IMG/VR virus record: IMGVR_UViG_3300008255_000101
Coordinates: 64,001 to 128,000 of that record
Source: a virus
DNA length: 64,000 nt
Direction: 5' to 3' (one strand)
Shown here: positions 3,333-26,435 of the stretch, piece after piece
How positions within the stretch are numbered: the first letter of the stretch is position 1
How the letters are laid out: the number at the start of each line of letters is the position of its first letter
Program-made: the position numbers and the translations under genes
The notes under the pieces: model-generated
What the model saw: only the letters and a program-made list of their open reading frames with translations
The model's database searches: none
What the model was told of the DNA's origin: nothing

Positions 3333-3338
3333 TTACTT

Positions 3339-3593: not shown

Positions 3594-3606
3594 GAGAAGG
3601 CCTCCT

Positions 3607-4509: not shown

Positions 4510-4519
4510 CGGTCACCCC

Positions 4520-5077: not shown

Positions 5078-5079
5078 GA

Positions 5080-5616: not shown

Positions 5617-5635
5617 AATGTGTACAGCTGTTTGG

Positions 5636-5648
5636 ATTAGAAGATTAT
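5636..5648 (-). promoter_or_regulatory. Putative late promoter motif ATAATCTTCTAAT
   Basis: Consensus copy of a recurring 13-mer, 20 nt upstream of the ATG at 5616. Confidence 0.7.
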
Positions 5649-5662
5649 CCTGAGGTAAGGGG

Positions 5663-6100
5663 TTACCCCTTATTCTCTTCCATCACTAAGAGCATTTCAA
5701 TGTCGAAGTACACTCTTTTGTTTTCGGGATCAAGCATGGGTAGATAGTCCACCTGGCTCTCCCATATAAAGTCTTCCAGACCATCTGTGATATCCGAGAG
5801 GTCTCCGTCACCATAGTTGGCCTTGAGGTACTCCGTGACAGGTAATGCCAGCTGAGTATTGAACTCATCCAAATTATCAGAAACGATATTCAGCACCAGG
5901 CCATTAAGCACGCGGATGTCCTCAGGGGGCTCTCCCTCGTAAGAAGCGGACATGTGGGCGTACAACGTGAAGTCCTCGTCAGATAGCCCCAGGACTTCCC
6001 GGTTACCGGCGTCATGAATTTCTTCCAGGGATGGGTCACCTATCTTAAAGGACCCTTCCAGCGCCTTGACGCTTTCTGCAATCTGTTGAGTGTTCAGCAT
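5663..6100 (-). CDS. Acidic hypothetical protein
   Basis: GGAGG RBS and ATG at 6100 (MLNTQQ). Very Asp/Glu-rich. Confidence 0.6.
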   Translation of the reverse strand: MLNTQQIAESVKALEGSFKIGDPSLEEIHDAGNREVLGLSDEDFTLYAHMSASYEGEPPEDIRVLNGLVLNIVSDNLDEFNTQLALPVTEYLKANYGDGDLSDITDGLEDFIWESQVDYLPMLDPENKRVYFDIEMLLVMEENKG

Positions 6101-6101
6101 G

Positions 6102-6383
6102 TTAGAATGACCTCCCCGTACGCTGTCTTCCATTACCCCTTTTGATCTCTGCACAGAGAGATTTTAAAGAGCGGATATTGTCCACCAATGCCAAAGCATC
6201 CACTTCCAACCGATGGGCCAGATACTCCTGGGTTACTCGGGAGACTAGGTCTCCATTATTGTCGTAGTGGAAATACACCCTTTCTCTTTCCTGGGTGTTC
6301 TTGGTCATTTTGTAACCTGAAGCTTGGATGCTTGCAGCCAGGTACAGATCACAAGTCTTATACTCGTCTAATTCGTTTGCCAT
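6102..6383 (-). CDS. DUF5659-like small phage protein
   Basis: YKTCDLYLAASIQASGY...RVYFHY...VDALALVDNIRSLKS pattern. Confidence 0.6.
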   Translation of the reverse strand: MANELDEYKTCDLYLAASIQASGYKMTKNTQERERVYFHYDNNGDLVSRVTQEYLAHRLEVDALALVDNIRSLKSLCAEIKRGNGRQRTGRSF

Positions 6384-6483
6384 TCTGTTATGCCCTATAT
6401 GCTTTTATTTTCGGGCAATAAGGTATTACCCGTCTTCGATGGATATACGCCTAAAAACCGATATTTAAAGAGTATGACACGAC

Positions 6484-6511
6484 AAAAGCCGGGAGTCTCC
6501 CCCCGGCTTTT
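6484..6511 (-). terminator. Rho-independent terminator
   Basis: AAAAGCCGGG-loop-CCCGGCTTTT downstream of 6538..6951. Confidence 0.75.
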
Positions 6512-6537
6512 AACCAATCAACCAATCCAAAAAAGGA

Positions 6538-6951
6538 TTAGAAGTCACCCACAGTGTTGCTGGGGTCAGTCTTGGTGCCGACAGTGCCGGCACGAGAGAG
6601 GCCCGTAGCGCCAGCGAGATCATCGATACCGGTGATCGTGATGGGGGCAGCCAGACCGGTAGGGTTACCGTCGGTACCGTAGTACACGGTTCCGCCTGCG
6701 TCTTCCACCATCTTGGCCACTTCAGGATCGTTGGCAGTTGCGAAACGCTTCAAGGTTCCTTTTTCTTCGGACATGAGCACTTCACCGGTGTTCACCAAAG
6801 CGATTTCGTCGCTGAAGTTGATCACCAGGTCTTGACCCACAACACGTTGACGGCCGGCGCCAAGTTGTGAGCGTTGTTGAATGTCTTCGAGGTACAGAGC
6901 GCCGACGTCGACACCGCGGTACGTGATGAGGCTGTATTTGTTGAGAGCCAT
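6538..6951 (-). CDS. Small, probably abundant virion protein
   Basis: AAGGAG RBS, its own promoter-like motif and terminator. Codon style resembles the capsid genes. Confidence 0.6.
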   Translation of the reverse strand: MALNKYSLITYRGVDVGALYLEDIQQRSQLGAGRQRVVGQDLVINFSDEIALVNTGEVLMSEEKGTLKRFATANDPEVAKMVEDAGGTVYYGTDGNPTGLAAPITITGIDDLAGATGLSRAGTVGTKTDPSNTVGDF

Positions 6952-7038
6952 GGTATACTCCTTGGTAGGCTTTTACAGTTCCGCCGGCACTGTAGGAGCG
7001 AACCTAACATTACCGGAGTTTCCACTTTCGTGACAAAC

Positions 7039-7070
7039 AAAAACCCCATAATACTAGATTATAGGGTTTT
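7039..7070 (-). terminator. Hairpin/terminator overlapping a variant late-promoter motif (7050-7062)
   Basis: AAAACCCCATAAT-ACTAG-ATTATAGGGTTTT imperfect inverted repeat. Confidence 0.55.
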
Positions 7071-7086
7071 CTTCTTTTAGGATAAC

Positions 7087-7746
7087 CTAGGGCTTAACAG
7101 CATCTTGGTACTCTACCTTGGTGGCTTTTCCGTCAGTAGAGAACGGTGCTGTGTAGACGATCTTCTTGGCATAGGCGCCCGAGGGGTCACTAGCACGGTA
7201 GATGAGCTCCTCCACCACATTACCCGTATCGATGGTCCGGTCTATTACCCAGTTGTCCTCATAGTATTCCACTGCGGAAGTGGATAGGGCCCCCAGAGCC
7301 GTTGCAGTGACACGCGCCCAACCTGATGCAGCTGGGGAGTAACCATAGTTATGGGCATTACTTACGGGGTTATCACGGACGTAGCCTGGAGTCACGCCCA
7401 CGACACCCACCGCCCTAGTCAGAGCGGAAGCAATCGCACTCTCCACGCCGGCAGCGCTTACTTCTGTGGCACGCAAGAAGAGTGGGGTGTTCGCGAAGGA
7501 CACACCGTCGAAGGGAGCACCCAGTGCCTGAACTTCCACCAGGGTAAGTTCGAAGTTTACTTGGTCATCCCCGCGAGGCCGTGCGGGGATGTTGGGGATG
7601 TTGCTCTTTACCTGGACATAGTTTCCTGTCACATCGGTCAGGGACAGGTACAAATTAACGGAGGCAACGTCTCCCGGGACTTTGTCGAAGAAAATCCGAA
7701 TCTTGTCTTCTGAGACAGCTAGGATTTGTAAAACTGCATTAGCCAT
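7087..7746 (-). CDS. FN3-like structural protein, paralog of 25307..25930
   Basis: Shared SEDKIRIFFD/SEKITVYWD, NIPN, and ATEVSAAGVES/ITSVDGSSVES segments. Confidence 0.6.
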   Translation of the reverse strand: MANAVLQILAVSEDKIRIFFDKVPGDVASVNLYLSLTDVTGNYVQVKSNIPNIPARPRGDDQVNFELTLVEVQALGAPFDGVSFANTPLFLRATEVSAAGVESAIASALTRAVGVVGVTPGYVRDNPVSNAHNYGYSPAASGWARVTATALGALSTSAVEYYEDNWVIDRTIDTGNVVEELIYRASDPSGAYAKKIVYTAPFSTDGKATKVEYQDAVKP

Positions 7747-7782
7747 TTTGATTACCTCATCTGATTGGTGACTATAACTGCC

Positions 7783-7795
7783 ATTAGCAGATTAT
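7783..7795 (-). promoter_or_regulatory. Putative late promoter motif
   Basis: ATAATCTGCTAAT; its TAA is the stop codon of the glycosyltransferase gene. Confidence 0.65.
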
Positions 7796-10700
7796 ATGCC
7801 GGAATCCTGTACCCACTGATCAGCGGCCCTCTCCCAAGTGTACTGGGAGACATGATCTCGCACCTTGTCGGCCTCTACCCTGCGGTAGTCCTCATCCTTA
7901 AGAAGGGCTATCACTTCCCTTAAAAAAGCACCCTGGTACTCCGGAGTCCCACTCCACCGGTGGGGCTCCAAACCTTCGGGACCTTTTATGAATAATCCTG
8001 AAGGTCCTAGGGTGGTCAACAGTCCTCCGTAGGGGGTCGTGACCACAGCATTACCGGCTAACCCGTTCTCCACTGCTGTGATGCAGAAGGTCTCGGAGAA
8101 CCACGTAGGGTATGCCCAAATCTTAGACTCCTTCTGCCGAGTCGCCAGTTCTTTTTTGTTTATGCGGCCCAGGTAGTTCACCCCAGGTTGCTTCATTTGC
8201 TTCTTAATGGCCTCTATACGGTCGAGTCCCACCTGATCACCACGAGTCTTAGCCATGGACTCCCAGTTATGGAATCCGTAAGCTACGTCGATTTCAAAAT
8301 CAGGAATCTCCTTGCGGATTTCTGGAAGCAGGTGTAATAACAACTCTAGACCCCTGTCAGGGGAGGAGCTGTACACCATCTTATTTTTCTTGATGCTATG
8401 GTCGACGTCACCGTAGTTGTCATGACGCACGCCGTTGAAGGTCATCAGCATTTTGTCATTGGGTATGCTGTGATGGGTACCAAAGAAACTCTGGTGCCAG
8501 TCGCTAAGAACTCCAAACTTTTTGACAGCCCATTTCATGGTGTCGTAACTCTTTTCGTGGTGGAGCCACACATCGTGGACCATCACGTAAAGGTTGGTGG
8601 TGTGCATCTTGAATGTTTTTAAGGGCTCACAGGTACGGGATAGGATACACATATCAATGTTTCGGTACTCTACATAATCTTTGAACCGGCTGTGGTGTAA
8701 GTAACTGACACCGTCCCGATCTATTTCCTCTACCTTAGGGTCCCCGAACAAAGTGGTCCTGTAGCCCCTCTTGCTGAACTCAGCGGAAAGCTCAGCGGCC
8801 CAAGTCTCCGACCCAGCCATACCCATGTCTACGTCTTCACGACCCCACTTCTCCCACGCTGGTCCTGTGTAGATAACCACTTCTTTCTTTTCCCACTTTT
8901 TGTGGAACAGTTGGTGGTTGTAGGCGTCTTCCTTATCATAGGATTCCTTGTTTTCCCCCTGGTAAGCCCCTCGGGAGATGCCACCAAAATGGTAAACGAA
9001 AGAGTCCAGGGATTGCCCTATGCGGTACCCCTGCTTAGAAATCCTTCGGGCATGGTCAAGATCCTCACATCCATTTTGGTACTGGGGATCCAGGTAACCC
9101 ACGTCGTTCCAAGCGGACTTGGCAAAGATAGTGGCATAGTAGGCTACCCACGCTTGGTCCATATACTTGCCTTCCAACTCTTTGTTCGAATTTTCCATGA
9201 AGGCGTTTAGCTCATCCAGGCGCGGGATGATTTGATCGTATTTCATACCGGGGACTAGCTCTAAACCGCTTGAAGGAAGTCTCATGTTGAAAACGGGTGA
9301 CTGCGGGTCACGGGGATTGCTGTGTAGCCAACCCCTATCACAATTGGATAGCACACCACAGACGGCCAACCTATCGGTGGTCTCCATCTTTTTAACCATG
9401 TTGGTTAGCCACCCCTTCGATACTAGTACATCAGAATTTAGAATGACAAAGAAACGGGAGTCCCCCGTGGCGGACACTCCATCGTTTACCGCTTCCGAGA
9501 AGTTTTTCCTAACGCCTCTGCTACCCAGAACGGTTATACCCTTAAGGGTGTCCAGGTAAGCCCAGGTGTCCTCATTACTACCCGCGTCCGATACCACAAT
9601 ATGGTACGGGTATAGGGTGTTCATATGAATGGATGTTACGCAGGCCTTTAGGTATTCCACTTCATTGTACACGGGGATAACAATGGGTACGGTCTGCTTT
9701 AGGGCCAGGGACTCGGTAGGTTGTGCAGGGGCTGTAACGGCGGGTACCGCAGGTAACGCCGCAGGTACGCTATTGACAATCTGGTCCGCCTTGGCTACCC
9801 ATTTCTTGGTAATGGCGTCCACAGAAAATTTCTGAGCGACATCCTGTCCGTTGAGGCCGACCTGTATACGCTTCTTGATGTCCTTGAGTTCTCTGAGGGC
9901 CTGTAACCATTCCCCTTTACCGTCACAGATATAACCACTGCGACCGGGTTCTATGAACTCCTTGTAGGCAGGCAGAGGTGAAGCCACCACTGGGATGCCA
10001 AAGGCCATGGCCTGCGCTGCCTTAATGTTGGACTTTGCCGGCTGCACATCAACCCGCTGGGGGCACAGAACCACATCAGCTCGGGACATGACTTCCTGCC
10101 ATGTTTCTAATTCCCATTTTTCGTCGGCATTATCCCACTCGGTACACACCACCAGGTCATAACCCGCCTCAGCTATAACATCTTTAAGGTAGTCTGTCAC
10201 CAAAAAGGAATTACCACCCATACCCATGTAGAGAGCCACCGGGTTTAGGGGTACCCCGTCCTGATCAAATCTACGGAGGAAATGGTCGTGGCTCTTTTCC
10301 ACTTTTTCCACAGCGTCTTCAACCACAGCCAATTTTTTGGAGAAAGGTTTGGCTTTTTCTAAAAGAGCCGAGGAACAAGTTATCACCGCGTCAGCGACAC
10401 CCAGGATCTTCTGGACCAGGGGGTTACCCACCAAGTCTTCGTTTAGATCCACTACGACTTTTATGCCCTTAGCCTGGATGTCCTGAATTAGGCCATACTC
10501 TTCCTCGTCAAAAACGGAAGATACCACCACGTTACTGGAGGATAGTTGGTCTAGCAGCCAGGACCTCTCAGCCTTTTGGTAATTTGTAAAGAGTACAGAG
10601 GTCACTCCCTGTTCCTGCATTTCCTGGTGGATGTTTAGGCGCCTTATACGCTGGGACGGATCCACGGGATTAAAGTACCGTAGTAACCAAGCCACCTTGA

Positions 10701-11841
10701 CTTCTTCATGGGGTTTGCTAGGGGCTCTTACAGGCTCGGGGTCGGGGATGGGGCCATCTACTTTACCGGTGAGAAAGATTTTATTTCTCTGGTAATTGGC
10801 ATCCTCCGGGTAATGCATCAAAAACTCTTCTACCACTTCTAAGGACTTTTTGTATTCCCCCCTGTCGTGGTAAATCTTCATGAGCTTATCAAGTGGGTAC
10901 TTCTTATAAAAGGCGGGCTTAGCCCCAAAGAGCCCCTGGGGGTCCTTGGACTTGGCGGTGAGGAATAGTTGTTCGGCTTCCTGCACGTCCCCCTGATCCT
11001 GGTAATAGCACCCCAAGAAATAGTACACTTCGGCGTACTGGTTGGAGTACATGGAAGCTTTCCTCAAGAAGGACACCGCCGCCACCGTATCATTTTTTGA
11101 AAACGTGTAATAGTTGTACATCTTGAGACAAGCCACTACTTTGTTATGGGCATAATCGGTAGGGCCCTTCAGGTATTCCTCGAATATCTTGACGGCCTCT
11201 TCCTCTTTTTTGTTGTCCATTAAATCTTTGGCGTAGTAGAATTTTATACGAGGGGTAGCATCGCCTCTGTCGTACTCCTTCTTGAGTATCGTTAGGTTGC
11301 GGGTAGGATCGTACTCCCTAGTTCTACGATGGTCCACCGCGATATCCGGTCTTTCCAGTCTTCGGTGCCCGCCATGGGTCAGGATGTACTCGTGGATGGG
11401 GTCATACCACCTGAGATCCTTACCGTTACGGACTATTCTCTCACGGGGGAGCGTTACCGATGGGCGGCCCTGGTCGTCGTGGCCGTAATTGTAAGTGATG
11501 TAAACGTAATCGTACTGGTGAAGGGATTCCTTCATATCCAGAATTTTCTTGTAGTTGTCGGGGGTCAGCTCGTCGTCAGCGTCCAACCACATGAGGTAGT
11601 TGCCGGTAGCCTGATCAAAGCTAAAATTTCTAGCCGCCGAAAAGTCATGCACCCACTCGAACCGAGGGGTCTTGTCAGCATACTTGCGGGCTATGGCCTC
11701 TACCTCAGGATCCTCCTGAGTGAGTGCCACTACGATCTCATCGAACAAAGGACCTTGGACGCTCTTTAGGCATCTCTCCAATTCCTTGGATTCGTTTTTA
11801 CCGACTATGACGCAAAGGGACAGTTTAACCTGTTGACTCAT
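7792..11841 (-). CDS. Multidomain glycosyltransferase GT2-TPR-GT4-GT2-GT4
   Basis: GT2 (WVHDFSAARN, WLDADD), TPR-like helices, GT-B (KSNIKAAQAMAFGIPVVASP), second GT2 (VIPVYN, ILNSDV, GCEDLD) and second GT-B (YSSSPDRGL, ETFCITAVE). Confidence 0.9.
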   Translation of the reverse strand: MSQQVKLSLCVIVGKNESKELERCLKSVQGPLFDEIVVALTQEDPEVEAIARKYADKTPRFEWVHDFSAARNFSFDQATGNYLMWLDADDELTPDNYKKILDMKESLHQYDYVYITYNYGHDDQGRPSVTLPRERIVRNGKDLRWYDPIHEYILTHGGHRRLERPDIAVDHRRTREYDPTRNLTILKKEYDRGDATPRIKFYYAKDLMDNKKEEEAVKIFEEYLKGPTDYAHNKVVACLKMYNYYTFSKNDTVAAVSFLRKASMYSNQYAEVYYFLGCYYQDQGDVQEAEQLFLTAKSKDPQGLFGAKPAFYKKYPLDKLMKIYHDRGEYKKSLEVVEEFLMHYPEDANYQRNKIFLTGKVDGPIPDPEPVRAPSKPHEEVKVAWLLRYFNPVDPSQRIRRLNIHQEMQEQGVTSVLFTNYQKAERSWLLDQLSSSNVVVSSVFDEEEYGLIQDIQAKGIKVVVDLNEDLVGNPLVQKILGVADAVITCSSALLEKAKPFSKKLAVVEDAVEKVEKSHDHFLRRFDQDGVPLNPVALYMGMGGNSFLVTDYLKDVIAEAGYDLVVCTEWDNADEKWELETWQEVMSRADVVLCPQRVDVQPAKSNIKAAQAMAFGIPVVASPLPAYKEFIEPGRSGYICDGKGEWLQALRELKDIKKRIQVGLNGQDVAQKFSVDAITKKWVAKADQIVNSVPAALPAVPAVTAPAQPTESLALKQTVPIVIPVYNEVEYLKACVTSIHMNTLYPYHIVVSDAGSNEDTWAYLDTLKGITVLGSRGVRKNFSEAVNDGVSATGDSRFFVILNSDVLVSKGWLTNMVKKMETTDRLAVCGVLSNCDRGWLHSNPRDPQSPVFNMRLPSSGLELVPGMKYDQIIPRLDELNAFMENSNKELEGKYMDQAWVAYYATIFAKSAWNDVGYLDPQYQNGCEDLDHARRISKQGYRIGQSLDSFVYHFGGISRGAYQGENKESYDKEDAYNHQLFHKKWEKKEVVIYTGPAWEKWGREDVDMGMAGSETWAAELSAEFSKRGYRTTLFGDPKVEEIDRDGVSYLHHSRFKDYVEYRNIDMCILSRTCEPLKTFKMHTTNLYVMVHDVWLHHEKSYDTMKWAVKKFGVLSDWHQSFFGTHHSIPNDKMLMTFNGVRHDNYGDVDHSIKKNKMVYSSSPDRGLELLLHLLPEIRKEIPDFEIDVAYGFHNWESMAKTRGDQVGLDRIEAIKKQMKQPGVNYLGRINKKELATRQKESKIWAYPTWFSETFCITAVENGLAGNAVVTTPYGGLLTTLGPSGLFIKGPEGLEPHRWSGTPEYQGAFLREVIALLKDEDYRRVEADKVRDHVSQYTWERAADQWVQDSGI

Positions 11842-12010
11842 TTTCGGGTCCTTTCTCTGATATGTGATTTGATCGGAAATCCGCCAGTGCTCTTCGGGCT
11901 TCTTCTTGGGGATCCGTCATACGGGACGCAGCAAAAGACAAGAACCACTCTTTAAGTTGTGGGTCCACTCTGATAGACCACGTGGTCTTGCTGTTGTTTT
12001 TAGTCCGCAT
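11825..12010 (-). CDS. Ribbon-helix-helix (Arc/CopG-like) DNA-binding protein
   Basis: 61 aa, TTWSIRVDPQLKEWFLSFA strand-helix-helix pattern. Overlaps the GT start. Confidence 0.65.
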   Translation of the reverse strand: MRTKNNSKTTWSIRVDPQLKEWFLSFAASRMTDPQEEARRALADFRSNHISEKGPENESTG

Positions 12011-12030
12011 ACGTATACAAGTGCATACGT
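12011..12030. promoter_or_regulatory. Imperfect 20-bp palindrome, candidate RHH operator
   Basis: ACGTATACA-AG-TGCATACGT between the promoter motif and the RHH ATG. Confidence 0.5.
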
Positions 12031-12031
12031 T

Positions 12032-12044
12032 ATTAGAAGATTAT
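12032..12044 (-). promoter_or_regulatory. Putative late promoter motif
   Basis: ATAATCTTCTAAT, overlapping the TAA stop of 12041..12652. Confidence 0.7.
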
Positions 12045-12652
12045 CGGTTGTATGTTATAACGTCGGCAACGGTAAGCATGGTACGGTACCTTCCAAGTCT
12101 TTCCTCGGTGAAAAAAGTGTTGGGGGTGAAACCGTACAACCACATCACACTTTCCCTAAACGAACCCGTTAGCAGGAGAGGTACCAGCTGCATTGTCTGA
12201 GCAGCTATTTCCAAACTGGAGAAACCCTCCAAGCTAGGACTAGATATACACTCCTCTCGGAACAGGGCTATAAACTCAAAACCGACCATCATATTTTGAT
12301 TTACTTCCGTGGAGTTATCCACTACTGCCTGAAGCCGGGTGCAGTTGACCTGGTACTCGATCCTAAACCTTTCTTCTGTTACGAGCACACCAAAACAATC
12401 CAATACCTCGTGATCCCCGAAGGACTGCAAAACAAGGTACGCTTCGTTTACCCAAAATGTTTTAGAGTTGTAAATGCATGACCCATCTACAAAAGTTACA
12501 CGGCTTACGTAGTTCATGTCTTTAATGTCCTGTAAAAAGGTGTATGTGAAGCTATCATGGTCGGCTAGGGTGTTTATGTAGGACAGAGCTAAAGCTTGGG
12601 TGTCGAACTTTCCTACCAGAATGCCTGTGGTTTCGTTTAGTGCGTATATCAT
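12041..12652 (-). CDS. Hypothetical protein (possible fibre chaperone)
   Basis: 203-aa ORF at the end of the fibre operon. The function is positional inference only. Confidence 0.5.
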   Translation of the reverse strand: MIYALNETTGILVGKFDTQALALSYINTLADHDSFTYTFLQDIKDMNYVSRVTFVDGSCIYNSKTFWVNEAYLVLQSFGDHEVLDCFGVLVTEERFRIEYQVNCTRLQAVVDNSTEVNQNMMVGFEFIALFREECISSPSLEGFSSLEIAAQTMQLVPLLLTGSFRESVMWLYGFTPNTFFTEERLGRYRTMLTVADVITYNR

Positions 12653-13239
12653 TCCATTACCAGGGTTAGGGTTGGACGAGTGGCTGAGGACGTGGAGGCT
12701 ACATTAGCATTGCCGCCCGTGGATAGAGACCATTCATATACGTCCCAAGTGTTACTTGTACCTACCCCTACGATTTTTTTAGTCGTGTAGCGCTCCCCCA
12801 ACCAAAACAAGTAGGTAGTGCCGGAAGTCAAAGTAGCCCGAGACCCTGAGGCCCATGTTTTGGTGTGGGTGTACTTTGTATCCGCTCCCAAGGTCCCCCC
12901 GTTAACAAACGACACACCCGATGTGGAATTGATACCGATAAACCCAGCAAGGGGTACGGCGTTACTGCCAGACGCTGTCCATATACCCCAGCAGTAGTTA
13001 TACGCCTGGGTGGTGTTGTAGGTCATGGACATGGATACTAGAACTTGATTCGACGGGGGGGTGTACTCCACAAAAAGGGCATAAGCCGAGCTATCCAACC
13101 ACTCTTCTGTAGGGCCGGCGCCCACCTCCCAAAGTATATCCCCTCCCCTAACAACCTGAACGATGTTGTTAGAACCCAGGGCGATCTCGCTCACCCCGGC
13201 TGTGAAAGAATCCATTTGGATGTTAGTAATACTGGCCAT
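12649..13239 (-). CDS. Ser/Thr/Gly-rich beta-sandwich fibre-tip-like protein
   Basis: Composition, and position immediately after the collagen/GH8 protein. Confidence 0.5.
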   Translation of the reverse strand: MASITNIQMDSFTAGVSEIALGSNNIVQVVRGGDILWEVGAGPTEEWLDSSAYALFVEYTPPSNQVLVSMSMTYNTTQAYNYCWGIWTASGSNAVPLAGFIGINSTSGVSFVNGGTLGADTKYTHTKTWASGSRATLTSGTTYLFWLGERYTTKKIVGVGTSNTWDVYEWSLSTGGNANVASTSSATRPTLTLVME

Positions 13240-13240
13240 A

Positions 13241-15814
13241 TTAACCTATGAGGAAATACATCCTACCCGCTATACGGGATGATACTGCGGGCATAGCTGT
13301 TACCACTTCGATGGAGCTTACCGGGTAGGAGGATCCCGTGGCGCCGGCTACAAATAAAGCTGTGGACGGTGTAGCCCCTGTAACTCCCCTAAGACCTGTG
13401 ACGCCTTGAAGTCCGGCACCCGTCAACCCCCTTAAGCCCGTCAGTCCTCGCAAACCCGTAACTCCCCTTAATCCCGTAACACCCTGGATACCCTGGATAC
13501 CCTGGATACCCTGGATACCCGTTACTCCCTGAATACCTACACCTGTTAATCCTCTGAGACCAGTTACTCCGGGTACACCCTGTAAGCCGGTTACTCCTTG
13601 GGTACCTATCCCTGTAGCTCCCGGAGTCCCTGCTAACCCGGTCACACCCCGTAACCCCGAACCAGTGGCCCCCTGAGGCCCAAGTAGACCAGTGACCCCC
13701 TGAGGTCCCGTGACACCTCCTGATGAGTTACCCGTCACAGACGTCCAGGTGTTAGCACCCCAAGTCAGACCCTGCACGGATCTGTAGTTGATAGCGCCTG
13801 AGCTATTAAAGGAAACCTGCATGCGGTACGGATTACTCCCGTCATCCGGGGGTATGAAGTTCAGGACATAAGTCGTCTCCATAGCCCCCGTAGCGGTGGA
13901 CTCCTTCTGCAGGTCACCGTTTATGGAACCCATACCAAACGACTTTATGGATAAGTAAAAATAGTCAGTATCATCGAAAGTGTTACCCACGGCAGCTTGC
14001 ATAGCATCGTTGGCTACGGCCTCCGAAACTGTGGCGCATAATCTCATGGGTGCCAGTATCGATAGCATCCCCAAGGAGTCCAAATGGGTACCGAAGCTCC
14101 CAGTCACGTCGATTACCAGGGCGCAAGCCGCTACGGGGTCGGCGTCCGATATGCAGGATAACAACGTGGCGTTAGTAGCTATGTTGTTTAGATAGGTATA
14201 CACGGCGGGGTCCCCATAGGCGTCATAGGCACTCACTAGCTGCTGCAGCACCCTACAGGCATCATAACCGTGCCCCTTAACACTCGACCCCGCTATGTCA
14301 TTACCGTCGTAGTCACACCAGTTACTGGGTAACCCGTACATGGCCGAATTCTTAGTCTGGTTCTGCTGGAGCAACCATAGCCCATCGTCGTAGACAGTGT
14401 CCCAACCCCTGCTGGGGTCTTGTAGAGAGAACGTGCGTATCGCTTCCAAGTCGATGTAGGAAGGATTGCAGTAGCTGTTCCAGCTATCCCCGGGCCCTAT
14501 CAACCTTTTTGTACCGCTCCCTGTGGTAGCATTGAATGTGTCAAAGTTGTAGATGTTGGCCAGCATGCTTAGGGCATCAGCCTTGTGGGAAGCGTCACCA
14601 AATTTCCCATACATGGTGAATAATATTTGGGCCACATGGATATCCGCATCGGAAGCTGAACCTGATCCCGTAACAGTACCCGTAAAACCTTGCACCTGCC
14701 AGTTCATCAGACCGCGGCTGCTTAGGTTGTCATTCCAGTATGCAAAAAGTTTGTTGAACTTTGTAACATAGGGCGATGAGGGGGAGTCAGCCACGAAAGC
14801 AGCAAGCATCATACCGTAGGAAATACCCTCAGATACAGTGAGTTCGCCAGTGAGGTGGTTTTCATCTATCCATTTTATACGGGCTAGCGTGCCGTCCACA
14901 TTCTCTTCGTAGAACTGGGTGAACCAGGAATCCACGTAGTCCTTGAACTGCTGAGAGTACGTGGCGTGGTTTTGGAAGGTTATGCCGTGGGAGTACATAT
15001 AGCCCGTTCCGTTTAGGACCACTTTGTACACTGTGAAGTTAGATGTGGTCTGCTCCGTGTCGTACTGGAACTGAAGCCCCACTAACTCGCTCAGGGGTAT
15101 GTCCCTAACGGTTCCAAAACCCGAAGGTTGGGCAAAATCGGACCACACTAACTCTAGAGTGGATTCCGCAGCTGCTATGGGTAAAGTTGTGAACCAGGAG
15201 GCTCCGTCCCCAGACAAATGGTCCCGGAGTTGCAGCTTTAGGGCTGTGTCCGATTTATAGGTTACAGTGACACCCATGTAGGTGCTAATGTCCACCGTAG
15301 GCTTGTCAGGTAAGGCCAGTGCCGAGGATTCCTTAAAGTCGAAATTAACACCACCGTAGGGGTACTGCCCCGCGCCGGAATTACCCAATAGGGCTACTGT
15401 TACGGCTAGGGACCCAGTGTCCAATTGTTGTTGTAGATCCCCGACGGCCGGGTCCACGGTAGAACCCAAAGCGTCAATGAAAGACACCCAGTTACCAATG
15501 GTAGCACCTGATGAGTCCCTGCAAAGTATTGGTAGGCTATTGCAATCGGTTAGTACCACATCATTAGTATTCTGGGGATATGTGTAAGTGGGTACAGTCA
15601 CAGACCCAGTCTTGGTGTCAGACAGGTATAACCCTGGCCCCGTGGCCCCGTTTGGGTCACTTTGCATCTGGGCCACTAGCTCATTAGCACTTAGAGCGTG
15701 CCAAGCACTTAGGGCCTCATGGTACTCAAATTTTGTATCCCCCACAACACCTACTGTCAAGTCTGCAGGGGAGTCTGCTTTTAGTGCCTCTATGCTCTCA
15801 TAAACTACGATCAT
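13241..15814 (-). CDS. CBM11/CIA30-like + GH8 glycoside hydrolase + collagen-like fibre protein
   Basis: CBM11-like ([33 protein letters not shown]). GH8 motifs [42 protein letters not shown]-terminal G-x-T/G-x-Q collagen triplets. Confidence 0.85.
13375..13715 (-). repeat. Collagen-like coding repeat ([12 protein letters not shown])
   Basis: 9/18-nt periodic sequence. Boundaries approximate. Confidence 0.85.
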
Positions 15815-18800
15815 GCTTTGATCCCCACGAAGTATCTAGTTGTGGACTCATTTCCCGCTGTCAGGGTACTGGCCGGAGGAGTGCTCTGGTTATCAAATTT
15901 CATTGCAAGGTACGGCGCTATATTGAAATTAGAAGCAGCCGATACCCCCGCGAATACGGGGGAGTTCATAGTGGTTACTATGCCCAGGTAGTAGATGCTG
16001 CCTCCCGTCAAAGTGTATGTAGACCCCGATACGAAATTACTGAGGGTGTAGCTCCTTAAACCAGCGGAAGGGTTTGTGTTTATAGACGTGTAGGCTACCA
16101 ACGACAGGGTGCTGCCTGACAGGGAGTACAGGACATAGTATAGATCTCCCCCTGATGGCTGTATCAGGAGGGCTTCCATTGTTGACGTCGTGGTGATAGC
16201 CATATCCCCGCTTGGTATCATTATGCTCAGGTGCATGGTGCGGGTATTGACGGTAAGTGCCGCTGCAGATATAGCCGAAGCTGGCAGTAGCGTCCTTTCG
16301 TAGGCTACAGAACCTCCTCCTCCAGACGGTCCCGTAGATCCGGGTACACCGGTTACTCCCTGGGTACCAGTATAACCTACACCAGTTACACCCTGGCTAC
16401 CCTGCAGACCTGTGACACCACGTAAACCAGTTAAGCCCCTAATGCCTGTAACACCCTGAACACCAGTGGCACCCTGGGGACCTGTGGACCCTTCGGCACC
16501 AGCCGCTGAAGCAGATGCGGCTCTTGAGATAGTCAGGTTATCTACACGGTATAGAGACCAGTTCCCGCCCTGGTAGTAGATAATGACGCGAGCCATAAAG
16601 GTGTATTCCAGAGAGAAACTAGGGAAATCCCCTAGTGCTAAACTCTGGGCGCTAAGAGCTTCCTGGCTACTGGCACTTCCTGCGGATTGACCCTGTATCC
16701 ATAGATACCTCTTGGCTTGGCTAACTGCATCTGCCGCAGCGGGTACCCCCATTAGCCATACGGCCATGTAGGTATTATTTGACATGGGGGTCTGTGTCCA
16801 GGTACCTCCCGAGTTCTGGTTATAGAACGGCGTGTTTCCGCTTAGCGGGACTATGTCAGACGCAGTCGTATTAAATGTAGCTGTACCTGTTCCTGTCCCC
16901 GTGAGGGAGTATTGGCAGTAAACACCACTTGTTAGTGCTGTGGACAGGGTGAGTAGGTCCTCGTCCTTGATGACTGTAGACGCTACATCCGGCCTTCTAT
17001 CGGCCACGGTGGTACTAGCCAAAACATAGTTACTGAGGGAACCACCTGACTCCCTGTAAGTACCCACCACCTCATGGAACTCTCTATGATCCTCCCACGG
17101 CATGGCCAACCCGTGACACTCCCTAATGGAGTATAGGTAGGTACCTGCGCTGTTATACACCACATAGGTTATCTGCAGCATGTCAAAGGACCACGGTGTG
17201 GTGTCCCACACGTAGGACGTACCATTATAATAAAGGAACAGAGGGGCCGTTGGGGATGCCGAGTGGGCGGGGGACACCCACCCGCTAGTAAGATCTGGTA
17301 TTAGTACACCCCGCCAATAGGCTTTAAACGTGCCAGTAAGTGCTACAGTACGGGAGGCGGAGTTGTAAGTTACTACGGGGGCCGACGTATCGTCAAAACC
17401 AGTGGGGTCTTTTAGAAGATCCTCATAACCAGTGGCTACACCAGTGGCGCCCTGGATACCGGTGTTACCCTGAGATCCGGTGTACCCCTGGATTCCTGTG
17501 GCACCCTGCACGCCTGTTGTTCCTTGAATACCTTGGGCTCCAGTAGTTCCTTGGGTACCTTGAACTCCTGTTGCTCCCTGAATACCTTGGGCTCCAGTAG
17601 CACCTTGGGTACCTTGAACTCCTGTGGTACCCTGAATGCCTGTTTCCCCTTGGATTCCCTGAATACCTTGGATTCCTTGAATTCCTTGGACTCCTGTTGT
17701 TCCTTGAATACCTTGAACACCAGTTGCTCCTTGAATACCCTGAATACCTGTGGCACCCTGGATTCCTTGTACACCAGTTGCTCCTTGAATACCCTGAACA
17801 CCAGTAGCACCCTGAATACCTTGGGCTCCAGTAGCACCCTGAATACCTTGGATTCCTTGAACGCCTGTAGATCCCTGGATTCCTTGAACCCCCGTCGACC
17901 CTTGGATACCCTGAACACCAGTTGTTCCTTGTACTCCTGTGGCACCTTGGATACCTTGGACTCCAGTTGCTCCTTGAGCGCCTGTTTCCCCTTGGATGCC
18001 CTGTACGCCAGTAGCACCCTGGATTCCTTGAACACCAGTAGTTCCTTGTAAACCAGTTACGCCCTGGCTACCGGTGTTACCTTGAACGCCTGTAGATCCC
18101 TGGACACCTGTTGTCCCTTGGGCACCCTGAACACCAGTAGCGCCTTGGGCACCTGTACTCCCTACGAAGTCCGCCCAGTACATAGTAGTGCCATCGTAGG
18201 TCAGGGCCTGGCCCAACGTGGGGTTTAGACCTGTTAGGCCCATTAGCAACTGGGCATAAATGACACCCTCTTTGGTCCACCTTCCCGTAACTACATTGTT
18301 GAAATCTTCTATTTCTAGGACTGCCCCACCGGTAATACCCGTCCCGTCCGCTATAGTTAAGGGTCCACCTAAGATGCTAGTAACTATCTCTGGGTCAGGT
18401 GAGTTGTCGTAGGCCTTTTGTAAAGTGGTAACGCCCACTGCACCAGCTCCTGCCACAACCTCACCTAATTTGGAGACACCTACGAAGGAGGCCTCTGTGG
18501 GGTCACTTAGGGAGGTGGCACCCTGCTGCACAGCCAGAACTCCGTATAGGGTGGCGTTTTCTTCTACGTCCTTCAACTTATTAAACACTTCTCTCTCCAC
18601 ACCCGCTACGGAATCTGCCAGGTTACCGTACACCTGCTGACCGTACTGCACAACGGTTCTGCCCGAGGCATACAAATAAAATCTCTGATTTGTGAATTTG
18701 TTGTTGGGTACGGCAGTTTTGGTACCGTTTAAATCGTAGAAGTTGGGGGAGATAAAAGTGGTAGGAGATTCCTCAGTGTTTGGGTCCTGGGTAGTGTAGC

Positions 18801-19917
18801 TAAATGTCAGGGGGGTAGCGACTGGGATCCCCTTAGTGTGGAGGTCCTTCACTTCTGTGCCGAAGTTTATACCGTTTCCAAACAGCGTACCCTCAGACTT
18901 GTTTAACCTAAGGTCCCCATCGTGTGGGGATAGCACGTTACCGCTTACATTTATGAACCCTAGTGCGGCCATAAAATCTCTTAACTGGGAGAAAGGTGAT
19001 ACAGACACATCTGGTTGCGTGTTAGCTACAGTTATGCTCGTGCGGTTTCTGTGCACCACCTTACCCAGCCAAACGTAATCCCTTCTTTCTGCGTTGGTGG
19101 GCTTGGTTGCGTAACTCAGCACGTTGTACTCTTTGTCCAGCAATACGTAGGTACTGTCCTGCGTAGCTAAGTTCGGAGGGGACACCCCCGTGGTACCGTT
19201 CCACTTTAGCTCTGTAATCGACGGAAAGTCGGGGTTAGACCAATCGTCTACCACAATAGCGGTTCCACTAGCTATGTCGTATTTTGTGCTGTCCAAGGGA
19301 TTGATTGATAGGGCCCCTCCTTCTATTAATCCTGTGGAATTGGACCACAAGGATCCCTTACTCATGTGGTCTAGGGGTAACCTGCCTACAGTGTCCAATG
19401 GGGCTATGCCACCCGAAGCTCCCACAGCCGCGTCAAAGGTATCAAACGCTCTCTGGACCTGGGTGTCCGCGACCGAAAGAATATTCGCGAAATTGCTTGT
19501 GTCCAGAGATATACCACTGGCGCCTTGGTGTTCTCCAACGTAGGTCATTACTGCCTGGCTGGTGGGGATAGCCGTGGACGGGCCTGTCTCGCCTAGTACG
19601 AGAACTTCACTAACTAGCACTATCTCTGAAGGCTTACTGTCCAACCCTATCAAGGCCTTGTATGCCTCGGTTCCTTTGGAACTGAGAAAGTTAGCGGTCT
19701 TGTCCGTTAGGGTATACCTGTCTTGTCCAGTTATCTCCTGGCCATCCATATCCCATAAACTTACGTTACCCTGAGTTATGGCGCTAAGGAGGTCACCCGC
19801 AAAATTTCCAAAAATTAGGGTATTGTAAAAGACTTCCTTCGTTTCCCCTGTAGCAAATGTCACCCCGTTAAGACTAAGGGGCGCTCCGCTGGTATTCTCT
19901 ATACTTTTGATTTCCAT
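15811..19917 (-). CDS. Collagen-like fibre protein (1368 aa)
   Basis: Long (GATGVQGIQ)n block flanked by two related globular domains, plus a second short collagen block. Confidence 0.85.
17440..18160 (-). repeat. Collagen-like coding repeat (GATGVQGIQ)n
   Basis: 18/27-nt periodic tandem repeats. Boundaries approximate. Confidence 0.85.
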
Positions 19918-19926
19918 AATACAGCC

Positions 19927-22900
19927 TTAGGGGGTCTCTGGATCAGTGCTCTCGAACACAAGATTGAGCATGAATCTAGCCGCAGCATTTATTTGATTAT
20001 TATTACTGCCTAAATTCGTGAACTGCCACCCAATCATGTCGTTAGCATTTCCTGTTATTCCTGTTATTCCTACGGCACTTACCTCTTGGTAAGCGGTAGT
20101 TCCCAAATTATTGTAGATACCGCACAGGGTTGGGTTGATATCGAGATCGATACTACCTATGGAGGTTCGGGAGGTACCGTCAAGCACGAATAACTCAATC
20201 CTTATCTTCGGGGAAGTACCCACCGTGCCCTGAGCAACAGCACACCTGGCTATGTGGCCATAGGCCGCTACCAACTTCCACCCGAAAGGAGTGACGTAGG
20301 GGTGAACACCTCCGTCCTGAAACTGTATGGAGCTATGTGTAAGTGGGGCCCCAAATGGATTGGCATTTCCAGATTGGATGGAGAAGTACCCCAGGGTACT
20401 AGACGCTTGTCCCATCATACCTGATAGCACGTAATCCCTAGGACGAGGACCTTGGCCTACGGGGCCAGTCTCACCCTGGGATCCGGTTTCTCCCTGTATG
20501 CCCGTGGCGCCTATCAATCCTGTTACGCCCTGGATACCCTGTACACCGGTAACGCCCTGGGCACCTGTGGCTCCTTGCACACCAGTCACACCCATCAGTC
20601 CCGTACTTCCGTCAGGTCCCGCATTACCAGTTATACCCTGGTACCCCGTGGCACCATCGGGACCCACGGACCCAGTCAGTCCATCCTCACCCGTCACACC
20701 TTGAGTGCCGTTGGCTCCTGTGATGCCTTGGACTCCCTGGATACCGTTGGCACCTGTTAAACCTTGTACGCCCTGAGAACCTGTCACACCCTGGACACCC
20801 ACAGCACCAGTGATACCCTGTATTCCTTGAGTACCCGTGACACCCTGGGTTCCCGTGCTACCCTGGACTCCGTTAGCACCTGTGGTGCCACGTAAACCTG
20901 TAATACCCTGAAGCCCTGTGATGCCCTGAGAACCGGTGATGCCCTGCACCCCGTCGAGTCCCGTGACACCCCGTGTACCCTCGGCGCCGGTGATTCCCTG
21001 TGTGCCATCGGCGCCGGTGATTCCCTGTACTCCATCAGTCCCAGTAATACCCTGGACACCGTCCGCTCCTGTGACACCGCGGAAACCTGTCAGTCCTTGT
21101 ACTCCGTTGGTACCCGTGATACCCTGGGTACCGGCTATGCCTTGAGTACCGGTAACACCCTGAAGGCCCTGAAGACCGGTGATACCGTCAAAACCAGTAT
21201 CCCCCTGGGATCCCTTTTCGCCAGTGATTCCCTGGGCACCGTCCGTTCCTGTAACACCCTGGATACCGTTGGCGCCTGTGGTGCCCTGCACTCCCGCGAT
21301 CCCCGTGATACCCTGCACACCCGCGGCACCAGTAGCACCCTGAAGGCCTTGAGTACCTGTGATACCGCCGAACCCAGTATCCCCCTGAGGACCCTGGTCA
21401 CCTGTGATGCCTTGAACACCGTCAGTACCAGTGGTTCCCTGCTCCCCTGCCACACCTTGTTGCCCTGTAATTCCTTGGACACCGCTTGCGCCCGTAATTC
21501 CTCTAATACCGGTGATGCCCTGGGTACCCGTATTACCTTGGGTACCAGTAACCCCTTGGTTACCGCTAGCACCAGTAATACCCATTAGACCGGTGATACC
21601 AGGTAAGCCGGTCTCTCCCTGAATGCCTTGTTCACCCGTGATACCCTGAGGACCTTGAGACCCAGTTATGCCTTGGGCGCCCGGAGAACCTGTTTCACCC
21701 GCAGGACCATAGGGTCCCGTTACTCCTTGGGAACCCGTGGTACCCTGTATACCCGTAGGTCCTTGGGAACCTGTGGCCCCCACCCCGGTGGATCCTTGGA
21801 TACCTTGGGTACCAGTCTCTCCTTGGGTACCAATACCTGTTTCACCTTGAACGCCTGTTTCTCCCTGGACGCCCGTTAATCCCTGGGACCCGGTGGCTCC
21901 TTGAATACCCTGAACACCAGTAGCGCCTTGAACACCAGTAGCTCCTTGAATACCCTGAACGCCTGTTGCTCCTTGAATACCCCGAACACCGGTAGCACCT
22001 TGAATGCCCTGAACACCGGTAGCACCCATTAAGCCCGTTGACCCATCGGGGCCGGGATTACCTGTGATACCCTCGAACCCAGTAATACCCTGAACACCGT
22101 CCACGCCTGTTATACCGCGGAAACCTGTAGGACCCTGGGCTCCCTCAGCACCTGTTAGACCGGCAGGTCCTGAAGGGCCTGTAAGACCTCTTGCACCTGT
22201 GTCCCCTTGGACGCCTTCAATACCCGTGAGACCCTGTAATCCAGTGTCGCCTTGAACACCATCAACACCTGTGAGGCCCTGTGCCCCCGTATCCCCTTGG
22301 ACGCCTTCCGAACCTGTGGCTCCTGCGGACCCCGTGATGCCCTGGGCACCAGTGTCCCCTTGTACGCCATCTACACCTGTAGGGCCCTGAACGCCCGTGT
22401 CACCCTGTACGCCTTCTGACCCGGTAACACCTTGAGCACCTGTGGCTCCCACACCCGTGGCGCCTGGGATACCCTGAATACCAGTTTCACCTTGGGTCCC
22501 TACACCAGTTTCACCTTGGGTACCTGTGGCACCCATTAAACCTGTGGATCCGTCTGGACCAGGGTTACCCGTGATACCGTTGAAACCTGTTAAACCCTGG
22601 ATACCGTCGGTACCAGTTATGCCTCGGAAACCTGTTAAGCCCTGGATACCGTTGGCACCGGTAATTCCGGTTACTCCCGTGATACCTTGGAGACCCGTTA
22701 GGCCTTGTTCGCCCTGGACACCGTTGAAACCGGTGGTTCCTTGAACACCGCTGCCACCTGTTATGCCCTGGAGACCAGTAGAACCCTGAGTGCCCTGTTC
22801 GCCAGTAATACCCTGGGGTCCCTGGGAACCGGTAATACCCTGAGCACCGGGGGAACCTGTTTCTCCAGCGGGACCGTAGGGACCTGTTTCTCCAGCGGGA

Positions 22901-24108
22901 CCCGTGGATCCGGACACACCAGTGGGGCCTTGGGAACCTGTGGCCCCCACTCCCGTTGAACCTTGAATGCCCTGAATACCAGTTTCACCCTGGGTACCTA
23001 CACCTGTCTCACCTTGGCTGCCTGCGCCAGTGTCACCTTGGGTACCTGTGCTACCCTGGATTCCTTGGAGACCAGTCTCACCTTGTACTCCGGTAGCACC
23101 TCTTAAACCTGTCGACCCATCCGGGCCCGGGTTACCCGTGATACCCTCAAAACCTGTTAAGCCTTGTATGCCCTCAGAACCAGTTATGCCCTGGAAACCT
23201 GTAGGACCTTGGGAGCCATCAGCACCTGTAAGTCCCGCCGGACCGGCTGGACCAGTAAGTCCCCTTGCCCCCGTGTCGCCTTGTACGCCTTCAATTCCAG
23301 TAGGTCCTTGAAGACCTGTGTCGCCTTGCAGGCCCTGCACACCAGTGTCGCCTTGCAGGCCCTCGGATCCAGTAGCACCCACAGAACCCGTTACGCCCTG
23401 GGTACCTACAGGACCTGTAATGCCCTGATCACCAGTGTCACCCTGGACACCGTCGATACCCGTAGGGCCTTGAACGCCCGTGTCACCTTGTACACCTTCA
23501 GCACCAGTCACACCCTGAGCGCCCGTGGCTCCCACACCGGTGGCGCCCTGTATTCCTGTGTCACCCTTGGCACCCGTAGCACCCTGAGTGCCAGCACCGG
23601 TCTCGCCTTGGAGACCCGTAGCACCCATCAAACCTGTGGAACCGTCGGGTCCTGGACTTCCCGTAATACCTTCGTACCCTGTTAGGCCCTGGATACCGTC
23701 CGCACCAGTTATACCTGAATCACCCGTGATGCCCTGGATCCCTGTAACTCCTGAAGTACCCGCAGGACCCGTCACCCCTTGAGGTCCGGTAACCCCTAAA
23801 CCTGTGTCCCCCTGGGGCCCAGTGGGGCCGTCGCTCCCTATGTAACCGATACCCGTAACGCCCTGTACACCAGTGGGCCCCTGGGGCCCTGTTATTCCTG
23901 GTCCCGTGTAGCTAGAGGAGCCACCTCCAGAGCAAATCCACTCCGTTCCATTGTAATACTCTAAGCAACCTGTAAGTCCGGCAGGGTTCGAAGTGTCCCC
24001 GTGGTAGATTACGTAACCCTCTTCAGCCACTAGGCTATCCCTCTCCGCCGTGGTAAGTACGGGAAGTTGAACGATTCGGCCTTTGTGTTTAATATTCAGG
24101 GTTTTCAT
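19927..24108 (-). CDS. Very long collagen-like fibre protein (1393 aa)
   Basis: About 1150 aa of G-x-y triplets dominated by G-x-T and G-x-Q. N-terminal [10 protein letters not shown]...GYVIY...LEYYNGTEW fibre module and a C-terminal globular domain. Confidence 0.9.
20450..23905 (-). repeat. Collagen-like coding repeat with higher-order duplications
   Basis: GPDGSTGL(M/R)G recurs five times and a ~1.1-kb block is duplicated. Boundaries approximate. Confidence 0.85.
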
Positions 24109-24150
24109 GTGCTATCGCTAGGGTACGGGTTCATGCCTTGCCCCATGGCG

Positions 24151-24163
24151 ATTAGTACATTAT
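24151..24163 (-). promoter_or_regulatory. Putative late promoter motif (variant)
   Basis: ATAATGTACTAAT upstream of the fibre operon. Confidence 0.55.
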
Positions 24164-24197
24164 AGCGGTAAGCCCCCGTGTTTAGTGGGGTTGTGGG

Positions 24198-25930: not shown

Positions 25931-25972
25931 AACTAATCCCTGTTTTGTTATCTGTGAAACAGGATGGGCCCC

Positions 25973-25985
25973 ATAAGGAGATTAT
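25973..25985 (-). promoter_or_regulatory. Putative late promoter motif (variant)
   Basis: ATAATCTCCTTAT upstream of 25930. Confidence 0.55.
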
Positions 25986-25987
25986 CC

Positions 25988-26425: not shown

Positions 26426-26435
26426 CTTTGGCCTC

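Follow-up and report, generated by a model that had tools for sequence, protein, structure and literature searches.

A GH8 glucanase-like protein on a collagen stalk in the fibre cluster of a huge phage, with a probable host link to Fibrobacterota

What would a bacteriophage do with a cellulase-type enzyme mounted on a collagen stalk among its fibre genes? The question is raised by a stretch of 64,000 nucleotides, here called the window, which makes up bases 64001-128000 of the 150,182-bp IMG/VR virus record IMGVR_UViG_3300008255_000101. CheckV estimates that this 150-kb record is 32% complete, from which it follows that the genome is several hundred kilobases long and that the window comes from a huge phage. 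The gene in question, P0001, is open across 857 codons on the minus strand, and its translation has no signal peptide. It joins a putative carbohydrate-binding module (CBM) and a catalytic barrel of glycoside hydrolase family 8 (GH8) to a collagen-like segment. The answer that we favour, with moderate confidence, is that P0001 is a beta-glucan depolymerase and adhesin borne by the virion of this huge phage and acting in adsorption, and that the host probably belongs to Fibrobacterota.

Consider first the catalytic part. Pfam Glyco_hydro_8 (PF01270) matches residues 324-545 of P0001 at E 1.2e-16, with 61.2 bits where 24 is the cut-off, and the match scores 63.3 bits in a genome-level search. 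A monomer model of residues 1-700, made with AlphaFold2 (AF2) from an alignment of 54 sequences, has a mean pLDDT of 92.3 and a pTM of 0.86. When Foldseek compares this model with the Protein Data Bank (PDB), the top match is the endo-glucanase CelA of C. thermocellum (1cem; E 7e-19, target TM 0.82), and because the alignment spans 379 columns on a target of 363 residues, the barrel is complete. Lower ranks go to a beta-1,3-1,4-glucanase, to chitosanases and xylanases, and to enzymes of the BcsZ type. A profile of the P0001 family finds CelA with 317 bits (E 3e-93), against 267 bits for the lichenase 5xd0 and about 205 for a chitosanase; xylanases reach about 100-115 bits and BcsZ about 50. 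Identity with BcsZ, the periplasmic GH8 endoglucanase associated with cellulose synthase, was considered and set aside. P0001 and BcsZ have the same fold and the same Asp base, and single-sequence searches of the PDB return BcsZ-type enzymes only (best 5cd2, 5gy3, and 1wzz), but these score just 19-32 bits, while both profile and fold put CelA far ahead; P0001 lacks the bcs operon context, and with the BcsZ equivalog model NCBIfam NF008305 it scores 49.7 bits against a cut-off of 299.

The residues equivalent to the active site of CelA were counted along the profile alignment to 1cem, and their codons were then verified (Table 1). E329, W372, D389, Y453, D518, and R521 are invariant in eight phage-type homologues that are 34-66% identical, W499 is likewise invariant among phage-type sequences, and across the 54-sequence alignment the CelA-equivalent residues are at least 90% conserved. 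The subfamilies of GH8 are defined by their catalytic base (Adachi et al., summarised in PMC5407803). In the chitosanase ChoK and the lichenase 5xd0, the profile alignment places Asn at the position of CelA Asp278, while P0001 has an Asp, D518, at this position, and P0001 therefore has the GH8a arrangement. Enzymes of the CelA type are inverting endo-glucanases, and with its catalytic residues intact the barrel of P0001 is predicted to hydrolyse a beta-1,4-linked glycan with inversion.

In front of the barrel lies a beta-sandwich, for which a separate model of residues 1-281 (pLDDT 84) was used in the fold searches. Foldseek ranks CtCBM11 of Lic26A-Cel5E first to fourth (6r31, 1v0a, 6r3m, 2lro) and CIA30/NDUFAF1, an assembly factor of complex I, fifth and sixth, followed by CBM30 and CBM29. 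A comparison by VIA-align with 48,161 representative chains, independent of Foldseek, puts 7zkq_A at Z 15.3 and 1v0a at Z 15.1 (rmsd 2.9 Å over 152 residues, 19% identity), with the next family at Z 12.0. These best structural matches, CtCBM11 and CIA30/NDUFAF1, concern residues 81-271 and are 14-19% identical to them. Homologues provide a second route to the same families. The module aligns with the Pfam-CIA30 region of a GH8 protein from Chitinispirillaceae (26% over 170 aa, E 5e-8); this region scores 21.1 bits with CIA30, below the cut-off of 24, and a neighbouring Chitinispirillaceae paralogue scores 26.4 bits with CIA30, above 24, and 23.5 bits with CBM_11, below 27. The same type of module is found on bacterial GH5 cellulases, some of them with sorting domains for type IX secretion (T9SS). 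Since fold ranking and homologues tie the module to both families, the label CBM11/CIA30-like is accurate, and the assignment, as judged from the modelled fold and the linking homologues, would stop short of formal CBM11 membership. Y151, Y153, Y186, W224, F227, and Y251 are conserved aromatics of the module. CtCBM11 is a type B module, which binds internal stretches of beta-1,3-1,4 and beta-1,4 glucan chains (PMC8612152).

Behind the barrel, a small beta-rich domain with a linker, residues 641-698, is conserved in homologues and leads to the stalk, which Pfam Collagen (PF01391) recognises with 45.4 bits against a cut-off of 27.2. The 36 G-X-Y triplets of the stalk fall into five runs of 4-13, with four two-residue G-X breaks between the runs, and in 16 of these triplets the Y residue is Thr. 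If it forms a triple helix, its length is about 33 nm at the standard rise per residue, and the collagen segment would make P0001 a trimer. The two ends of the protein are specific to phages. Residues 1-58 are conserved in the homologues P0002-P0005 and not in P0006, P0007, and P0162, so that this end is lineage-variable among phages, and the last 42 residues are near-identical in P0002, P0004, and P0005 and recognisable in P0006; this tail may be a trimer nucleator or a docking element. A shared adaptor, seen by eye between the N-terminus of P0006 and the fibre protein P0009 and between residues 1-58 of P0001 and P0162, was dropped when BLASTP gave nothing significant. In its order of head, stalk, and tail P0001 resembles the Scl- and BclA-type collagens of bacteria: Scl1 and Scl2 of streptococci, BclA of Bacillus, and Lcl of Legionella also carry a globular head on a Thr- or Gln-rich G-X-Y stalk with a short terminal anchor. 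The head of P0001 is an enzyme, however, and the likeness is architectural only; the collagen part scores 50.8 bits with NCBIfam adhesin models, for which the cut-off is 500.

The architecture had been read from the letters alone in an earlier note on this DNA, as a complete GH8 domain with the acids of TVSEG, SDAD, and YDAxR, flanked by a CBM11/CIA30-like module in front and a collagen stalk behind. The profile search that it had proposed for GH8 came out above the cut-off, E329, D389, and D518 align with their counterparts in CelA, and both flanking parts stand, the first of them through fold and homologues. It had also placed the gene in a phage fibre cluster, and here too the evidence agrees: collagen fibre genes adjoin P0001, genes for the large terminase, the portal, and the head protease are encoded in the same window, and the record itself is a virus record of IMG/VR. 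The stop codon of the upstream fibre gene, P0009, overlaps the start codon of P0001 by 4 nt, and the next gene downstream begins 1 base past the stop codon of P0001. Because the junctions in the cluster are 4-nt overlaps or a 1-nt gap, its genes are tightly packed on one strand, and the fibre genes around P0001 are translationally coupled. The non-collagen part of P0009, residues 187-541, matches PHROG 16641 (tail fibre) with E 1e-29. P0001 is thus located within a phage structural fibre module, as is its homologue in a prophage, to which we now turn.

Among the species genomes of GTDB, the best match to P0001 (41% over residues 103-672) lies on L086, a 37.9-kb contig of a Fibrobacteres metagenome-assembled genome (MAG). 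The genes on this contig start with terminase, portal, protease, major head protein, tail sheath, and tape measure; then come the baseplate wedge, the Mu gp48-like baseplate protein, and a protein of 402 aa, and after these the 780-aa GH8 protein and a partner of about 200 aa. The bacterial flank has a GH5 cellulase, a CarboxypepD_reg protein, a paralogue of TIGR02147 'Fsuc_second' (194.6 bits), and glycogen synthase (glgA). TIGR02147 is present, mostly as many copies, in 36 of the 41 genomes sampled from Fibrobacterota, the phylum to which the Chitinispirillaceae MAG belongs, and in the 14 controls it was not found; since the flank bears this Fibrobacterota-typical gene, L086 is a prophage within the chromosome of a member of Fibrobacterota. 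In this P2/Mu-like prophage, the tail-fibre slot is taken by the GH8 protein. The GH5 cellulase (10375-12264, minus strand) opens the bacterial flank, and the prophage therefore adjoins the host's own fibre-degrading genes.

Similar proteins are rare. A search of 5.8 billion proteins gives seven relatives of P0001, of which six combine GH8 with collagen, and of the 601 matches in an exhaustive search of representatives a handful span both modules, the rest having either GH8 or the binding module only. In IMG/VR, a relative belongs to L002, a complete phage of 375.5 kb with terminal repeats, where a collagen fibre of 2004 aa, a GH8-collagen protein of 974 aa (37% identity), a partner of 198 aa, and a glycosyltransferase (GT)/methyltransferase make up the same cassette. 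The portals of L002 and the window phage are 25% identical, and the window terminase was not detected in L002 or in four MAGs, so that the two phages are not close relatives. The partner gene has nevertheless stayed with the GH8 gene: its homologue follows directly after GH8 in L002 (13691-14287; 41% over 102 aa) and in the prophage L086 (6440-7042; 40% over 135 aa, E 6.5e-20), with identities of 33-41% across the two huge phages and the Fibrobacterota prophage. The 196-aa partner of the window has no family match in Pfam, PHROG, or NCBIfam, the Atlas assigns the partner to clusters with viral members only, where leads to a lectin-like or beta-sandwich protein are weak, and it could act as a chaperone or adaptor of the fibre. 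When window and prophage L086 are compared by local all-against-all BLAST, the GH8 protein and the partner are all that they have in common, and therefore the pair behaves as a mobile module. A further case may be an independent and more divergent phage GH8: on L003, a 51.7-kb high-GC IMG/VR contig, a 1414-aa open reading frame (7154-11398) has a stretch 31% identical to GH8 residues 326-522, and Pfam finds no GH8 match in it.

From where, then, do the two modules come? About half of the 79 best cellular loci belong to Fibrobacterota (Fibrobacter, Fibrimonadaceae, Chitinispirillaceae), and most of the remainder to Bacteroidales or Flavobacterium. In a FastTree phylogeny of 132 GH8 domains, the phage-type sequences form one clade with support 100 and a stem of 0.92 changes per site, nested among GH8s of Fibrobacterota, of Bacteroidales, and of T9SS-tagged metagenomic proteins; the tree, with a midpoint root only, rows picked by similarity to P0001, and no characterised outgroups, gives the clade no clear immediate sister. 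Sequence comparison thus places the origin of both GH8 and CBM among secreted glucanases of the Fibrobacterota or Bacteroidota type. The likely kind of donor for both is seen on L027, a 252-kb contig of a Chitinispirillaceae MAG, where two tandem genes (2869-5127 and 5383-7731) each encode GH8, an InlB B-repeat, and CIA30/CBM_11, with the order of modules reversed in the phage. The same two types of module occur in GH8 enzymes of Fibrobacterota and in T9SS-sorted GH8 and GH5 enzymes; in these bacterial enzymes, however, the CBM comes after the catalytic domain and signal peptides or T9SS sorting domains are present, whereas in P0001 the CBM comes first and the collagen stalk after. The earlier note had seen a resemblance to enzymes of cellulolytic bacteria such as Fibrobacterota, drawn from it a tentative host clue, and suggested a phylogeny of the GH8 domain. 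The resemblance is confirmed by the cellular matches and by the module carried on Chitinispirillaceae GH8s, the phylogeny yields a well-supported phage clade among the expected bacterial sequences, and the clue is strengthened by the 41%-identical homologue in a prophage tail-fibre slot with TIGR02147 on its flank. The host of the window phage is accordingly best sought in Fibrobacterota, to which it probably belongs.

These observations suggest the following scheme. Both modules were captured from glucanases that bacteria of the Fibrobacterota or Bacteroidota type secrete. P0001 lacks the bacterial secretion signals and has in their stead the phage N-terminal domain, the collagen stalk, and the conserved C-terminal tail. 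Trimerisation of the collagen would then present three CBM and GH8 heads per fibre, and the partner of about 197 aa would probably serve as fibre chaperone or adaptor. At the host surface or in its surroundings, the heads would bind beta-1,4 or mixed-linkage beta-glucan, be it an exopolysaccharide of the host or the cellulose or cellodextrin to which the host adheres, and by cutting this glucan they would let the virion advance to the outer membrane, in the manner of classical tailspike depolymerases.

The last step can be varied, since sequence alone does not choose between a polymer made by the host and plant or particulate fibre beneath it. The fibre could bind and trim the insoluble beta-glucan, plant or particulate, on which the host settles, while another fibre sees the cell receptor. 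Virions would in this way be kept where their hosts feed, as has been proposed for immunoglobulin-like domains and retention in mucus; the modules do derive from enzymes attacking external plant fibre, and several other fibres of the cluster could hold the receptor specificity. Still, in the small prophage it is the main tail-fibre slot that the GH8 protein fills, a position that speaks for direct involvement in recognising the host, and we regard such targeting to the habitat as unlikely. Somewhat more doubtful is that P0001 acts not on a beta-glucan but on xylan, chitosan, partly deacetylated chitin, or some other beta-1,4 polymer, or else on a host-specific capsule. GH8 xylanases and chitosanases are among the top structural matches, and some of the relatives belong to Chitinispirillaceae, a family known for degrading chitin. 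The Asp at the position of CelA Asp278 nevertheless excludes the GH8b arrangement with Asn, the family profile gives CelA 317 bits and xylanases about 100-115, and the nearest CBM fold binds glucans.

If receptor-binding proteins are often derived from enzymes, as they are, then the GH8 cleft and the CBM might merely form a glycan-binding recognition head, for which hydrolysis is irrelevant or very slow, and the long stem of the phage clade would be in keeping with this. To this view we give little credence, because all of E329, D389, Y453, D518, W372, W499, and R521 remain invariant among homologues that are as little as 34% and at most 66% identical, which is the pattern expected of selection for catalysis. 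Viral glycoside hydrolases, finally, are usually read as auxiliary metabolic genes (e.g., PMC8725595), and P0001 could by analogy act outside the virion, freeing progeny from a cellulose or biofilm matrix at the time of lysis or boosting the use of polysaccharides by the host. A collagen stalk, coupling to fibre genes, a co-inherited partner gene, the lack of an export signal, and the tail-fibre slot of the prophage homologue would all be hard to understand for such an enzyme, and we consider it improbable.

The preferred reading, a virion-borne depolymerase and adhesin of a phage of Fibrobacterota, has its own difficulties, and the following points all weigh against it. Activity, binding, and presence in the virion are predictions, and the same is true of trimer formation, of the host, and of the substrate and the part played in adsorption. 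Neither CBM_11 (PF03425) nor CIA30 (PF08547) of Pfam matches P0001 itself at E <= 0.01. GH8 is a broad family, which contains xylanases as well and has a GH8b branch with chitosanases and lichenases; no characterised GH8 is more than 20% identical to P0001, and with a stem of the length given above the substrate could have shifted. P0001 may dock to the virion by either end, and the GH8 protein of prophage L086 has no collagen; for this homologue attachment by the N-terminus, which is usual for tail fibres, would be expected. The link to the host is indirect for the window phage, because fibre genes move between phages. Phage-type GH8 fragments are also found in bins of other bacteria, namely in an Izemoplasmatales MAG (L005, on a 3-kb contig) and in a Dysgonamonadaceae MAG (L006, on a 2.6-kb contig; omitted from the GH8 tree, most of the domain being missing). 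The fragment of L005 is near-identical to the Fibrobacterota prophage gene, and both probably represent phage DNA placed in the wrong bins, which cautions against deducing hosts from binning.

Table 1. Features of P0001 and of its neighbourhood, with positions in the window
Feature	Residues	Position	Strand	Basis
P0001, GH8-collagen fibre protein, 857 aa		13241..15814	-	ORF list and translation; homologues of 34-66% identity have the same architecture
Small beta-rich N-terminal domain, candidate adaptor	1-58	15641..15814	-	AF2, pLDDT 87-95 over 1-40
CBM11/CIA30-like beta-sandwich, putative beta-glucan-binding module	78-272	14999..15583	-	Foldseek, VIA-align, homologues
GH8a-type (alpha/alpha)6 catalytic barrel	283-640	13895..14968	-	Pfam PF01270, Foldseek, family profile
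Codon of E329 (TVSEG), CelA Glu95, catalytic acid	329	14828..14830	-	Profile alignment to 1cem
W372, CelA Trp132	372			Profile alignment to 1cem
Codon of D389 (SDAD), CelA Asp152	389	14648..14650	-	Profile alignment to 1cem
Codon of Y453 (NPSY), CelA Tyr215	453	14456..14458	-	Profile alignment to 1cem
Codon of D518 (YDACR; KYDATR in CelA), CelA Asp278, GH8a catalytic base	518	14261..14263	-	Profile alignment to 1cem
R521, CelA Arg281	521			Profile alignment to 1cem
Small beta-rich domain and linker, enzyme to stalk	641-698	13721..13894	-	AF2 strands 644-653, 665-669, 675-679, pLDDT 77-82
Collagen-like stalk	700-815	13370..13717	-	Pfam Collagen, triplet count
C-terminal tail, 42 residues	816-857	13244..13369	-	Ends ...[17 protein letters not shown]
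P0009, upstream collagen fibre protein, 1368 aa		15811..19917	-	Pfam Collagen; PHROG 16641
P0010, collagen fibre protein, 1393 aa, 375 G-X-Y triplets		19927..24108	-	Pfam, PHROG, triplet count
Partner gene, 196 aa		12649..13239	-	Begins 1 base past the GH8 stop codon; co-inherited with the GH8 gene
203-aa gene		12041..12652	-	ORF list; 4-nt overlap with the partner gene
Multi-domain glycosyltransferase, 1349 aa (GT2, TPR, and GT1-type domains)		7792..11841	-	Pfam and PHROG; downstream end of the fibre cluster

The remaining features of the neighbourhood can be dealt with briefly. The 203-aa gene has no family matches in Pfam, PHROG, or NCBIfam. In P0010, Thr occupies 147 of the 375 Y positions, and stalks rich in G-X-T together with the glycosyltransferase at the end of the cluster fit the idea of glycosylated fibres. 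Elsewhere in the window, a 706-aa protein (1212-3332, minus strand) has a match to DUF1565, a beta-helix of the pectate-lyase type, close to its C-terminus, and phage L002, at 1637-3781, encodes a 714-aa protein with collagen and DUF1565; a second fibre enzyme, of the classical beta-helix kind, therefore seems to be present in both huge phages. The terminases closest to that of the window belong to a 485-kb uncultured phage (33% identity) and to the 309-kb Tunturiibacter phage Tunturi_5 (30%), and because these identities are too distant no host is deduced from them. Scans of 7000-26500 for promoter and terminator consensus sequences gave results at or below chance level, and no tRNA genes were found in the window.

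How does P0001 relate to known enzymes and phages? With CelA (1cem, 1kwf), itself of GH8a, it shares the (alpha/alpha)6 barrel and the matched residues Glu95, Asp152, Tyr215, Asp278, Trp132, and Arg281 at about 20% identity, but CelA is secreted, belongs to the cellulosome, and bears a dockerin, whereas P0001 has no export signal and carries a CBM11-like module, a stalk, and phage-specific ends. GH48 and GH8 share the (alpha/alpha)6 fold and belong to one clan, GH-M. A parallel is offered by Erwinia phage S6, which uses bacterial cellulose as its first receptor and encodes the cellulases gp094 (GH48-like) and gp095 (GH5) in its tail-fibre region, activity being demonstrated for gp095 only (PMC9544554). 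S6 would resemble the window phage in that infection requires a bacterial beta-1,4-glucan and that cellulases are encoded within the tail-fibre region; it differs in having other glycoside hydrolase families and no collagen, and in being an N4-like podovirus of a gammaproteobacterium.

Phage genomes already deposited contain little that is similar. A tblastn search with residues 59-690 of P0001 gave no match in 50,697 GenBank phage genomes, and the same search with a bacterial GH8 (P0018) gave one weak match (178408-179055, 24.7%, E 4e-4), in a hypothetical protein of the 274-kb cyanophage Microcystis phage MaAM05 (MW495066.1). PHROG matches to P0001 lie almost all in its C-terminal collagen part, from residue 621, with none in the GH8 catalytic core, and BFVD has no convincing GH8 barrel. 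The literature search gave no paper that reports GH8 from a phage tail or describes it as an auxiliary gene of viruses, apparent matches being GH87, and none on a tail fibre of a Fibrobacterota phage. Virion depolymerases are already known, phage cellulases included; new are the GH8 catalytic family, the CBM11-like partner module, the mounting on collagen, and the link to Fibrobacterota, and attachment by such a fibre would be a novelty among phages.

To our knowledge, virion-borne depolymerases are nearly all trimers of beta-helix or beta-propeller type, and P0001 offers an apparent equivalent in which an (alpha/alpha)6 barrel of GH8 with a CBM of its own sits on a collagen stalk. Its enzyme head is compact and well modelled (pLDDT 92) and suited to direct expression and assay. 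It also provides a host hypothesis for huge phages, i.e., Fibrobacterota, and a caution for virome studies: among the glycoside hydrolases that are counted as metabolic genes, some may be hardware for adsorption. A more speculative extension, which we think rather unlikely, is that the mobile pair of GH8 and partner defines an unseen group of Fibrobacterota phages, from prophages of about 30 kb to genomes of more than 370 kb, which find their hosts via the polymer on which the hosts feed. If this were true, virions would carry a functional cellulase derived from the host lineage, dock on cellulose or beta-glucan fibre, or on cellodextrin held at the cell surface, and cut it, and they would be predators of fibre degraders as well as minor contributors to the breakdown of fibre.

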